This document shows positions 52,268 through 56,679 of a stretch of DNA of 64,000 bases, piece after piece. The translations under genes and the position numbers were made by a program. Below the pieces are notes generated by a model, which searched no databases, was not told where the DNA came from, and worked only from the letters and a program-made list of their open reading frames with translations. The stretch spans positions 53,023 through 117,022 of the forward strand of contig JAWOCD010000110.1 in assembly GCA_046483985.1 (NCBI GenBank). The letters run 5' to 3'. Each line of letters opens with the position of its first letter. Position 1 is the first letter of the stretch. Origin of the DNA: Promethearchaeia archaeon (GTDB taxonomy: Archaea; Asgardarchaeota; Lokiarchaeia; Sigyniarchaeales; SOKP01).

Positions 52268-53125
52268 TTATTTTGAGCTCTCTGATGCTGCTTTTTGCTC
52301 TTTTTTGGGAAACCATGGGAAAAATTGGCTGGTTTTTCGTTTATATAGTGTAAAGGCGTCATCGCCCTTGTGCATTTTGTCTTGTAGTTTAATCCCTGAA
52401 ACATTAATTATTTGAAAAGTAATATATAGTGGGCTGAACAGCATAAAAAAACCAAATGGAACACCTAAAGTAATAATATATATGCCCCACCATTGAGTAA
52501 TTTCGCCGAAATAATTAGGATGCTGTGTATAACGCCACAATCCTTCATCCATTACCTTTTTGGTCCGATCGGGATCATTAAGGAAACTATATAATTGGTA
52601 ATCCCCTACCGTTTCAAAAAAGAATCCAAAAGCCCAGACTAAAGCACCGACCCAGAGTGTTATCCCGGAGAAGCTTAATAGATTTTGGATCCCAGGATTT
52701 TCGACCACATTTATCCATAATACAGGAAAGGCTACAAGAAAAATTACAAATCCTTGAAATAAGTAAATCTTACCTAAACTCATAAGAACAACATTTTTCC
52801 CTTCTTCTTTCCATCTTTCCCTCATATTGGTATATCTTTTATCCTCCGGCTTTCCTTTATTCCGTATATATACATAGGAAGCTAATCTTATTGACCATAT
52901 GAGAACAAAAATGGTCACCACAATTTTTCGTATTGATAAGGTCCCACCTATTAAATATGAATTGATTAAACTGGTAAGAGCAACCACAAAATACCCGGGT
53001 CCATAAAAGATATCCATAATTCCATTGTTCTTCTTAACTGTCCCCACGATAAATGCAATCATTTGATATCCTAAAAGAAACAGACCAGAAATTCCAATAA
53101 CCAGTAATATATTTTCCGTAGACAT
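52268..53125 (-). CDS. DUF1295 family membrane protein (steroid 5-alpha-reductase/ICMT-like)
   Basis: EDKRY..MR, E.VGD.QL..F, GLWRYTQHPNYFGE...WWG. Confidence 0.9.
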   Translation of the reverse strand: MSTENILLVIGISGLFLLGYQMIAFIVGTVKKNNGIMDIFYGPGYFVVALTSLINSYLIGGTLSIRKIVVTIFVLIWSIRLASYVYIRNKGKPEDKRYTNMRERWKEEGKNVVLMSLGKIYLFQGFVIFLVAFPVLWINVVENPGIQNLLSFSGITLWVGALVWAFGFFFETVGDYQLYSFLNDPDRTKKVMDEGLWRYTQHPNYFGEITQWWGIYIITLGVPFGFFMLFSPLYITFQIINVSGIKLQDKMHKGDDAFTLYKRKTSQFFPWFPKKEQKAASESSK

Positions 53126-53279
53126 TTTAATTTTACCTTTGGAAATCTTATTTTATTATTATAACCTATTGAGCTTTCCTATTTAAATCTATGATTTATA
53201 CCTTAATAAGGAAGGAAAATCTGAATCTACAAAATTGAGATGAAGCCAATGGGAAAAAAGGGGAAGCATAAAAATCACC

Positions 53280-54218
53280 TTAGCTTTTTTCTGGTTTTCC
53301 CACTCGGAGCCTTCTTTCTTCTTCTTCTTTAACCTTCTTTATATATTTATATTTTTCAAGAACTGAAAGATCTTTATCGTGTCGCTTGGTATACAAAATC
53401 TCATATTTTTTTCTCAAGTCGCCTATATCAGTTATCTTCTTTTTTAATTTTTGTCTTAGCCCGTCCTCAAAGAATTTATTCTCCTTAAACTTTTTAGCAG
53501 GAACGCCAAGATAAATCCAACCGTCTTCTAACTCTTGTCCTACGGTGGTAAGCGAATTGGCCGCTAAGATTGTATTCTCTCCGATATGAGTGCCTGGCAT
53601 GACGACAGAATGCGCTCCGATATGTACATTATCCTCAATTACTGTTTTTCTGATTATAAAAAGATTTCCCATTATGATAGATGATTGGACTAAACTTGCT
53701 TGTCCGACTACTACATTATCACCGAATTCTATAAACTCGCAATCGACCCACCCTTCAAAGAGCGAATTAGAAAATTTGGTTTTCACTCCGAACAATTTAA
53801 AACATAAGTTGTCCAAAAAAGGAAAGGGAAATTTATGAGCTAACCATATAGGCCATTTTTTAATCACATTCCGAATGCACCAATATCTGTAATCTTTATC
53901 CGATTCGTCCCGTAAAAAAACCCCTTCTTTCGGTTCATGAATCGCATTAACTATTACCAATAAAATCTTGGCGCCCACTAATGAGACGAGAATGAGGGAA
54001 AAATACATCATTATTCCAACAAGGGGTAAAAAATAGAAACTATAGACGGGATCTTGGATGTAAAATTGCCAAAATACCCAAAATTCAAACTGAATTGTAA
54101 AGGCACTCAGCCATATCAAGAAAATATAGAAGAACAAATATCGTTTTTTTATTAATACATTAGAAGTGTGAGGTCCGACCTTCAAAGAACTCGGCACTGA
54201 CATGTCTCTATTCTTCAC
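53280..54218 (-). CDS. 2-TM + left-handed beta-helix (LbH) acyltransferase-like subunit (third of three)
   Basis: Two TMs, PKEGVF, YRYW.IR, PFP, FG, hexapeptides, WIYLGVPA. Confidence 0.8.
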   Translation of the reverse strand: MKNRDMSVPSSLKVGPHTSNVLIKKRYLFFYIFLIWLSAFTIQFEFWVFWQFYIQDPVYSFYFLPLVGIMMYFSLILVSLVGAKILLVIVNAIHEPKEGVFLRDESDKDYRYWCIRNVIKKWPIWLAHKFPFPFLDNLCFKLFGVKTKFSNSLFEGWVDCEFIEFGDNVVVGQASLVQSSIIMGNLFIIRKTVIEDNVHIGAHSVVMPGTHIGENTILAANSLTTVGQELEDGWIYLGVPAKKFKENKFFEDGLRQKLKKKITDIGDLRKKYEILYTKRHDKDLSVLEKYKYIKKVKEEEERRLRVGKPEKS

Positions 54219-55149
54219 CTCCCGCTTTCACTAAATGCTTCTTTTCCTCATCAATATTGACTTCCTGGGTGGTAAACGATTTGGTTCGACTATCGACGTC
54301 CCTCTTTACGATCACATCTTTTCTCTCATGAATAAATCTATTCTTCTTTAGTTGAATCCCGGGAATACCGAAATAAATCCAACCATCCTCTAATATTTGT
54401 TTGAAATTCGTACTGGAAAGAGCGCCCAAAACCGTTTCACGACCAAAAATGGTGCCCGGGGCAATAGTGGAAACTCCTCCGACTACAGCGTAATCGTCAA
54501 TTAAAATCTCCTTTATTATCAAGTATTTTCCAATAACCATAGAGGACATCACCACAGCGCCTTGCCCAATTGTGACTTTTCTTCCTAATTTGATAAATTC
54601 TACGTCTACCCATGCCTCCGTTAAATGACTGGAAAAATCCATTTTGATTCCAAACCACCGAAAGGCCCAAGCGTCGGCCCATGGTAAAGGTGAATTATTT
54701 AAAAGCCATACTCCCAACTTTTTTAATTCTTTACGCAATCTCCAGAATTCAAAATCCTTTTTTCCTTCTTTCGCTAAGAATATGCCTTGTTTTGGTTGAT
54801 GTATGAGATTAACTATTACTAACACCAGTTTAGTTAAGATTACACATCCTAAAATGAATATATAATATTCTCCAAGAAGGACTACAGGTAAAAAAAACAT
54901 TAAGTTTATCAAATTCTGACAAAAATTGAGGCAATGAATCCAAAAGGATAAACATAAAAAACCAGAAGCCCAAAAAATGGGAATATAAAGTATCAGAAAT
55001 TTGATATGGATTTTGCTGACTGCGCTGCTTGTATTAAAATCTATTGTATAGGTTTCATCATCCTCTTCTGTATCTCTCTCAGATTCCTTTGCATGTTCCC
55101 TTCCTCTCTTTTTTTTATCGTCATCTGGTGCGTTCTTTTGATTTGACAT
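54208..55149 (-). CDS. 2-TM + LbH acyltransferase-like subunit (second of three)
   Basis: Two TMs, PKQGIF, FEFWRLR, PLPW, FG, hexapeptides, WIYFGIP. Confidence 0.8.
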   Translation of the reverse strand: MSNQKNAPDDDKKKRGREHAKESERDTEEDDETYTIDFNTSSAVSKIHIKFLILYIPIFWASGFLCLSFWIHCLNFCQNLINLMFFLPVVLLGEYYIFILGCVILTKLVLVIVNLIHQPKQGIFLAKEGKKDFEFWRLRKELKKLGVWLLNNSPLPWADAWAFRWFGIKMDFSSHLTEAWVDVEFIKLGRKVTIGQGAVVMSSMVIGKYLIIKEILIDDYAVVGGVSTIAPGTIFGRETVLGALSSTNFKQILEDGWIYFGIPGIQLKKNRFIHERKDVIVKRDVDSRTKSFTTQEVNIDEEKKHLVKAGGEE

Positions 55150-56090
55150 TATCCATTTTCTACTCCTTTATCAATTTTGGATGGACTTTTATGCTGTTCT
55201 TTTTTCTCACTCTTTAAAACGTCTGCTTTGTTTAGTTCTTCCTTTGTTACATCTAGATATTTTTTCGTTTTTCGATTAGTTGTTCTCCTTAGAGGTAGTC
55301 CAAAATAGTAATTATCTCCTCTGAGTTTACTATGTTTGGTGGCCGAGGCTAAAGGAAATAAATAGGAATTATCTTTGATCTCAGCGCCAGGAGCTACACA
55401 ATTGATTCCCCCCGTAGTTACATTATCTCCTAACTTTATTTTGAAATACGAGAGATTTCCAAATATTCCCTCCAAAGAATGGGAACTGAATCCTGAATTA
55501 ACCCCGATATAACAATCCTCTCCCATCTCTACGAATTTGTCCGCACCAAATTGTTCTTCTATGGTTGTACCTTTTCCTATTTTATTAGTTCCCACAAAAT
55601 TGTAAAACCAATTCAAGAGCCATGGAAAAGGACCTTTTATAAATGCATTTTTCGGATACTTAATCATGAATGACCGGATATGATAATAATTTAAGGTTTT
55701 ACTCTGAATATTCCTCGGAATTATACCCTCTTTAGAAGGTGAATTTTTCTCCGTAATTCCCCATAACCCTCTGGTAATTACTCCCACCATCAGGAGGTGG
55801 AGTACATAACACCCCATAATTACTAACGGTAAAAAGACAGAAGCTAGCAATGGTCTGGGTTTAATGAAAATAAGGATAAAAGCATTAGTAGATAATAAAT
55901 ACGGATAGTAGAAATATATAATATAGAGTGTGAGTAGAATGCCTGGGATTAAAAATGAACCTAAAAAAATTAAAAAGAAGGACAAGAAATACCAGTGAAA
56001 TTGGAGGTTTATCTCTTGCTTCGGCGGGTCATCGGAATTATTCATATGAGAATCTTTATTATTCGTATCTTCTCTTGAGGTTTGATTCAT
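55149..56090 (-). CDS. 2-TM + LbH acyltransferase-like subunit (first of three, retains His)
   Basis: Two TMs, SKEGII, YYHIR, PFPW, VG..KIG.GT.I, FSSHSLEG, YYFGLP. Confidence 0.8.
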   Translation of the reverse strand: MNQTSREDTNNKDSHMNNSDDPPKQEINLQFHWYFLSFFLIFLGSFLIPGILLTLYIIYFYYPYLLSTNAFILIFIKPRPLLASVFLPLVIMGCYVLHLLMVGVITRGLWGITEKNSPSKEGIIPRNIQSKTLNYYHIRSFMIKYPKNAFIKGPFPWLLNWFYNFVGTNKIGKGTTIEEQFGADKFVEMGEDCYIGVNSGFSSHSLEGIFGNLSYFKIKLGDNVTTGGINCVAPGAEIKDNSYLFPLASATKHSKLRGDNYYFGLPLRRTTNRKTKKYLDVTKEELNKADVLKSEKKEQHKSPSKIDKGVENG

Positions 56091-56274
56091 CTAAATCATC
56101 TTACAAATGGATTTAATATAACTTTATTACGATCTAATTAAAATCTTTTGCTTTGGGCCATACATAGATTTATATATTTTTTTAAGAATTAAAAATCTAA
56201 AAAGAAAAAAAACGTATTAAAAATTGAACGAAGAAAAATGTTAGGGCTGAAGAGGAAAAATTAGATCTTAAGAA

Positions 56275-56679
56275 TTATTCCAAATTACTGCCGCAATTTG
56301 CGCAGAATTTCTGGTCTCTATTATCCAATTTTGAACCACAAAATGGACAATGTTTTTGAGAGTTTCCAACGCTCTCAACTACTTCGGGCTGATAATTAAC
56401 AGTGTTCTGAGAAGTAGCAGATGAAGGGGGTAATTGGTCTTGGGCTGGTTCTTGGTAATCCAACTCTTGCTCTTGTTCTTGATAATCAAGGGGTTTACAA
56501 ATCGAATTACAGTGGACGCATCTAATCTCATCTTGCGCATAATAATAGATTAAATAGAAAATTATCCCGATCCCGGTGAATGATAAAACAATGCCTAAAC
56601 AGATATCGAAATCCTTTTTTTTCATCAGAACCTTCTGTTTACAATGAGGACAATAACCAACAGGGTTTGCGGTTGTCAT
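56275..56679 (-). CDS. LITAF-like zinc ribbon plus second zinc ribbon
   Basis: CPHC-hydrophobic segment-CVHC, then CPFCG...CANCG. Confidence 0.75.
   Translation of the reverse strand: MTTANPVGYCPHCKQKVLMKKKDFDICLGIVLSFTGIGIIFYLIYYYAQDEIRCVHCNSICKPLDYQEQEQELDYQEPAQDQLPPSSATSQNTVNYQPEVVESVGNSQKHCPFCGSKLDNRDQKFCANCGSNLE

Follow-up and report, generated by a model that had tools for sequence, protein, structure and literature searches.

The ε-poly-L-lysine synthetase (Pls) and PosA are nonribosomal peptide synthetases (NRPSs) whose membrane-bound end, composed of the units C1, C2 and C3, has neither a solved structure nor an established mechanism (PMC10522769). In the AlphaFold description of PosA, this end is a pseudo-threefold domain standing on six bent helices (PMC10522769). 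Here, we report on three paralogous genes, termed A, B and C, which lie adjacent and head to tail on the minus strand of the genome of a Loki-type Asgard archaeon (Promethearchaeia archaeon, assembly GCA_046483985.1). They are located within a stretch of 64,000 nucleotides of contig JAWOCD010000110.1 (positions 53,023 to 117,022), which is referred to as the window and whose numbering is used for all coordinates of the locus. Each gene encodes a hairpin of two transmembrane (TM) helices, a linker and a left-handed β-helix (LbH), and only gene A carries a histidine in a characteristic loop. We propose, with a probability of roughly 0.65, that the three proteins form a heterotrimeric membrane acyltransferase with a single active site, probably dependent on acyl-CoA, and not an NRPS module. 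The direct basis of this proposal is the homology, the layout, the single His, the gene order, the natural gene fusions and the lack of a carrier; from these we infer the assembly, the donor and the acceptor.

Genes A (55149..56090, 313 aa), B (54208..55149, 313 aa) and C (53280..54203, about 307 aa) share one layout. In the order A, B, C, the motifs SKEG, PKQG and PKEG, then YHIR, WRLR and WCIR, then PFP, PLP and PFP occur after the hairpin, and the hexapeptide-type LbH is succeeded by YFGLP, YFGIP and YLGVP. The loop reads FSSHSLEG in A, where the translation places the codon of His204 at 55479..55481 within an H-x-x-E motif, VMSSMVIG in B (MSSM, without His) and VQSSIIMG in C (QSS, without His). 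The protein encoded by gene B additionally has a conserved N-terminal F-x-T-S-S-A motif. Pairwise identity is 40% for B and C (E 9e-63) and 28% for A and C (E 1e-17), which puts their paralogy far beyond chance. Two long hydrophobic helices were found in each of the three proteins, with 3-9 Lys and Arg residues in the N-terminal tail, 7-9 past the second helix and 0-1 in the loop between the helices. Because this distribution is positive-inside, both termini and the β-helix of A, B and C should be cytoplasmic.

The initial annotation described three overlapping, translationally coupled paralogues of 313, 313 and 312 aa with this layout. Reading of the open reading frames (ORFs) and pairwise comparison recovered the coupling, the layout and every motif, and the three lengths hold for the ORFs as such. 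The overlap holds for A and B, where the TAA of gene A and the ATG of gene B share one base (TAATG) with AGGAG in front. The ORF of gene C is open from a GTG at 54218, which gives 312 aa and would overlap gene B by 11 nt; however, the ATG at 54203 is the likelier start because the orthologues begin with MSVPSS and the Shine-Dalgarno sequence GGAGGTGA precedes this ATG. With that start, B and C would not overlap, as gene C would begin 4 nt past the TAG of gene B.

Only one member of the trio bears the loop histidine, as had been noticed from the window alone. His204 was found to be invariant across 25 A-type sequences, down to 29% identity. In a common alignment, the loop His column is occupied by His in 21/21 A units, 0/22 B units and 0/22 C units, and Ser stands at the position of A His204 in both B and C. 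By residue count in the alignment of the A profile with 1kqa, His204 of A aligns with His115 of LacA, the catalytic base of that enzyme. The mean column identity is 55% for B and 61% for C as opposed to 52% for A; since it is at least as high as that of A, B and C are not decaying copies.

The same asymmetry appears in Pls/PosA. There, the loop His of the common alignment is present in 25/25 C3 units, 1/25 C1 units and 0/25 C2 units, and the C3 motif Q-T-H-L-x-E-D-R-x-M-K is invariant in 14 Pls/PosA enzymes (P0281 among them), including H1284 and E1287; the H-x-x-E spacing is thus common to A and Pls C3. The restriction of the loop His to C3 in true Pls/PosA predicts that C3 holds their sole catalytic base. 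The loop His of two bacterial stand-alone triples lies in their middle unit.

How closely are the archaeal proteins related to Pls and PosA? The only Pfam family seen in A, B and C is Hexapep (PF00132), with 18.9, 20.8 and 39.9 bits, respectively, against a cut-off of 27, so that gene C exceeds it. In NCBIfam, all three match best to TIGR02353, the model of the Pls/PosA terminal domain, although the matches are partial and their 21.3, 36.0 and 40.2 bits compare with a curated cut-off of 423 bits that was set for the three-unit model. Acetyltransferases of the LacA and maltose acetyltransferase (MAT) type come next in NCBIfam. Profile comparison with the 14 Pls/PosA enzymes by hhalign gave probabilities of 97.0% (A), 96.8% (B) and 98.0% (C). 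As hhalign aligned the pre-helix linker for all three profiles and the P-K-x-G segment after the hairpin for the B profile, the match to Pls exceeds generic β-helical coils. A hidden Markov model of the Asgard unit detected 2 or 3 of the C1-C3 units in each true Pls tested and all 3 after one iteration. The kinship with Pls/PosA put forward in the initial annotation is therefore well founded, a Pls match having been obtained for every unit. Among known structures, the best match of the A profile is E. coli LacA (1kqa, E 1.5e-7), and Foldseek matched single units to MAT, GAT, AntD and CysE. Sequence searches of the PDB with C, A and the A profile returned neither a Pls-like chain nor one with the whole architecture. 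Each gene supplies 2 TM helices and 1 LbH, and the sum of the three reproduces the Pls-like layout of six TM helices and three LbH; an adenylation (AMP-binding) domain is absent from the A, B and C proteins according to Pfam.

Phylogenetic analysis specified this kinship further. The Asgard units cluster together without exception (SH-aLRT 93); the sister of this group is the bacterial stand-alone triples, followed by Pls C3, and Pls C1 and C2 lie apart from the Asgard units (99); the tree is a quick one of 153 columns with long branches, and its deep nodes need to be read with care. Forcing all His-bearing units into one clade made the tree 109 log-likelihood units worse (p-AU 0.00013 in the approximately unbiased (AU) test, for which the group was fixed after the first tree had been seen). 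On this test we also rejected the view that A and Pls C3 are orthologues descending from one ancient triplication. Both the grouping and the AU test indicate that the three-way split of the Asgard units arose separately from that of Pls C1-C3, which would make the trio a cousin of Pls and not something split off from a Pls gene. It thus seems that a His-bearing ancestor gave rise more than once to the arrangement of one active and two silent units. The notion of a split Pls-like condensation module, with which the window had first been interpreted, is upheld as regards Pls-related units with one His, and is not borne out as regards descent from Pls by fission; carrier-dependent NRPS condensation is unlikely because neither PP-binding nor phosphopantetheinyl transferase (PPTase) domains were found in the 97%-complete genome.

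The idea of a heterotrimer with one active site gained support from gene order and fusions in addition to the single His. An uninterrupted A-B-C run occurs at 12/16 loci of same-family genomes, 5 of the 12 having two tandem sets, so that the trio is conserved among relatives. Genes A and B are fused at 3/16 loci; as exceptions, no C was found at one locus (L048) and one second set is interrupted (L046). Natural A-B fusions were found in P0126, P0127 and three relatives, C-A fusions on three contigs of the same genome (C43, C41 and C114) and in P0122, and C-A-B fusions of about 800 aa without an adenylation (A) or carrier (T) domain in P0123-P0125. Every fusion keeps the cyclic order A>B>C>A. 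These natural fusions argue for an A-B-C heterotrimer.

AlphaFold2 folded a natural triple fusion (pLDDT 87.1, pTM 0.87) and a C-A fusion of the same genome, about 60% identical to C and A of the window (pLDDT 86.5, pTM 0.83), each as a single body. The models of these homologous natural fusions show LbH coils, and in both the unit order is two long helices, a strand, two helices and then the β-helix, which matches the published PosA model (PMC10522769). A prediction of the A+B+C complex gave ipSAE values of 0.79, 0.80 and 0.70, and the partner-replaced controls gave 0.00 except for the control with chain 2 replaced, which gave 0.75; this prediction was not used as evidence either way.

The trio of the window is one of six sets in the same genome. 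Like the window, where A, B and C are separate genes, three further sets contain all units: contig C43 encodes B and a C-A fusion (L009:3382-6047), and contigs C41 (L010:5569-8071) and C114 (L011:5445-7849) each a C-A fusion and B. The remaining two are a His unit with a His-less unit on contig C32 (L012:5941-7561) and a lone His unit on contig C64 (L013:4920-5696). In the tree, the units of the C41 and C114 sets and of P0123 group with the A, B or C clades, which places the differentiation into A, B and C before the sets were duplicated. With the A profile, matches were obtained in 41/41 genomes of the same family and 3/3 of the sister family; the matches were weak in three other families, and another 22 families of the phylum sample yielded none. 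All named database relatives are Asgard metagenome-assembled genomes (MAGs).

Taken together, we envisage the following mechanism. A, B and C would be made from one operon, and the helical hairpin of each protein would enter the membrane such that both termini stay cytoplasmic. Around a pseudo-threefold axis, the cytoplasmic β-helices could then assemble into a 1:1:1 heterotrimer standing on six membrane helices, an architecture that would equal that of the C1-C2-C3 end of Pls/PosA. In LbH acyltransferases, the active sites are built where subunits meet, and His204 would presumably be located at such an interface. With A alone supplying this general-base His of the H-x-x-E motif, the complex would have one active site, and B and C would serve as conserved non-catalytic partners shaping it. 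As donor, an acyl-CoA thioester is the most likely candidate; its phosphopantetheine arm is the same as the one presenting the aminoacyl group in Pls. Acyl-CoA would be the simplest choice since neither a carrier nor a PPTase was detected, a T domain has the same pantetheine arm and acyl-CoA is what the nearest soluble relatives use. As acceptor, a hydroxyl or an amine would serve, which most likely belongs to a lipid or glycolipid of the membrane or to a molecule that travels through the helical base.

The kinship with the polymerisation domain of Pls/PosA, which is the closest family and shares the single H-x-x-E unit, raises the alternative that the trio is a true Pls-like polymerase. It would make a homopolymer of amino acids or other activated monomers that exits via the six-helix base, with activation in trans by a stand-alone adenylating enzyme and without a carrier, for example through an aminoacyl-CoA or aminoacyl-AMP donor. 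A genome-wide search for stand-alone A and T domains, as the initial annotation had envisaged, retrieved 15 AMP-binding enzymes, all of them stand-alone, and in 4 relatives an AMP-binding gene lies near the trio and the DUF1295 gene. However, none of the 15 is located beside the window trio, and most paralogous sets likewise have no adenylating gene adjoining them. The AMP-binding neighbour of the relatives, a FadD-like gene convergent to DUF1295, scores best as a long-chain fatty-acid-CoA ligase and not as an amino-acid adenylating domain. Moreover, the genome gave 0 matches each for the PP-binding carrier (PF00550) and the PPTase (PF01648), families that were both matched in most control genomes, and no specific relationship links the Asgard units, taken as a set of three, to Pls. 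We therefore regard such a polymerase as unlikely. A bolder and rather improbable extension would see the trios as carrier-independent membrane polymerase-exporters, that is, as a minimal, naturally split Pls-type machine turning CoA-activated monomers into a polyamide or an acylated polymer on the surface of Loki-type cells. In that case, each of the four or five paralogous sets of a genome would have its own product, and the one His-bearing unit would be the sole catalytic centre of all Pls-type enzymes.

That A, B and C are instead three separate homotrimeric enzymes for different substrates or steps is hard to reconcile with the fact that B and C lack a His aligning to the catalytic base and are nevertheless highly conserved, with the retained A-B-C order and the covalent A-B, C-A and C-A-B fusions, and with the folding of fused forms as one body. 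Although the solved LbH acyltransferases among the PDB matches are mostly homotrimers and a lone A-like gene exists on contig C64, we hold this explanation to be very improbable. Protein C also matches γ-carbonic anhydrase (γ-CA) families and the CA/CAL (carbonic anhydrase and carbonic anhydrase-like) subunits of complex I weakly, and an LbH assembly that is no acyltransferase at all could be imagined, either γ-CA-like or with a solely structural role in the membrane, in the manner of the CA/CAL heterotrimer of mitochondrial complex I. This is the least credible of the explanations, as the best matches are LacA/MAT-type acetyltransferases and Pls. Besides, the three zinc-binding His of the γ-CA type are found in the invariant or near-invariant columns of no unit; these columns hold at most one or two His (H204 and H137 in A, H117 in B, H128 and H203 in C).

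Several observations count against the heterotrimeric single-site acyltransferase that we favour. The Hexapep matches of A and B stay under the Pfam cut-off, and the two-gene set on contig C32 and the lone His unit on contig C64 show, as judged from their gene content, other stoichiometries. The neighbours differ among the six paralogous sets and include DUF1295, a PIG-L deacetylase, GH31, a metallophosphoesterase and a helicase. Furthermore, DUF1295 was undetected in 19/41 same-family genomes, some of which are 100% complete.

The DUF1295 gene (52268..53125, minus strand) lies 3' of gene C and encodes a membrane protein of the steroid-reductase/ICMT/PEMT-like superfamily (PF06966, E 1e-57). 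The initial annotation took this co-oriented gene as fitting a lipid role. Its identity was confirmed, and it is a frequent neighbour: by coordinate comparison, at least 17 same-family genomes have their best DUF1295 copy next to an A-type gene. In view of the phyletic pattern, which also includes DUF1295 in Asgard families without any A-profile match, we rejected DUF1295 as an obligate partner of the trio and consider it accessory rather than core. It probably belongs to its own transcript, since an oligo-T run (CCCCTTTTTTCCC, 53251..53264, minus strand), read as a candidate archaeal terminator, lies directly past the stop of gene C, and a TATA-like box precedes DUF1295. On the other side of the trio, the gene directly 5' of gene A (56275-56679, minus strand) encodes a small membrane protein that has a zinc ribbon at each terminus; it was not found adjoining the trios of relatives. 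The 184-nt spacer between this gene and gene A contains an A/T-rich TATA-like box (56166..56182, minus strand), about 80 nt 5' of gene A, which may be the operon promoter. As had been noted for the window, no adenylation or carrier domain was found in the ORFs scanned between 51035 and 56679, where the neighbours are DUF1295, zinc-ribbon and DUF362 proteins. PADLOC gave no match to a defence system.

Further neighbours were noted at other loci. Directly 3' of the C41 set and on the same strand lies a PIG-L/BshB-like de-N-acetylase gene (L010:4693-5475), and a gene resembling ADP-forming acyl-CoA synthetases (CoA_binding and Succ_CoA_lig domains, L013:5722-7227) is convergent to the lone A-like gene on contig C64. 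In a Planctomycetales MAG, P0233, a fused triple TM-LbH protein without A and T domains, heads a tight operon (L064:5971-12604) with genes for a GT1-type glycosyltransferase, a GMC oxidoreductase, a short-chain dehydrogenase/reductase and an RmlA-like nucleotidyltransferase, which suggests acylation of a glycolipid or glycan. A relative of P0233 with 71% identity in an Omnitrophota MAG (L065) has different neighbours. DUF1295, the FadD-like ligase, PIG-L and the glycosyltransferase operon of P0233 point weakly to a lipid or glycolipid, which is our best guess for the acceptor. A class II ribonucleotide reductase gene located by the trios of one relative (L047:9485-12928) contains an intein with a LAGLIDADG homing endonuclease; an intein-free version of this gene flanks the trios in six other relatives.

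Full-text searches of the available papers returned no account of an Asgard TM-LbH system, of a characterisation of DUF1295 or of a solved structure of the Pls C-terminal end. The trio belongs to a multi-copy membrane enzyme family that was found in all same-family genomes searched (41/41) and appears to be undescribed. It probably modifies the envelope or the lipids of the archaea closest to eukaryotes.

Among known systems, the trio shares the LbH fold and C-terminal coils with the O-/N-acyltransferases of the LacA, maltose acetyltransferase and AntD type (for example 1kqa, 2ic7 and 3vbi), the best structural matches of single units. Unlike the trio, these soluble enzymes consist of three identical subunits with three active sites and have neither a membrane hairpin nor a linker module. 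The bacterial stand-alone triples (P0217, P0233 and the Omnitrophota relative), which branch as the closest outgroup to the Asgard units, resemble the trio in having three units without an A or T domain and a His only in one, the middle unit; they differ in being uncharacterised single polypeptides of about 680 aa with shorter units. As for Pls/PosA, the unit itself is alike throughout C1-C2-C3 with TM1-6: a TM hairpin, P-x-x-G, two linker helices and a strand, the LbH and W/Y-x-G-x-P. Three such units make up each assembly, exactly one of them bears the His of H-x-x-E, and a pseudo-trimer on six bent helices is predicted (PMC10522769). In contrast to Pls/PosA, the Asgard units are distributed over three genes without A or T domains, the genome yielded neither a carrier nor a PPTase, the scores of 21-40 bits compare with 423 bits, the differentiation of the units is independent and several paralogous sets occur per genome. 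Judged by sequence, the trio is a natural carrier-free relative of the polymer-making end of Pls. Split and devoid of A and T domains, it provides a genetically separable model, in which each unit can be expressed, mutated or omitted alone. The rule of one His in three units predicts for Pls itself that mutation of the C3 His would abolish polymerisation, whereas the corresponding positions in C1 and C2 would tolerate change.

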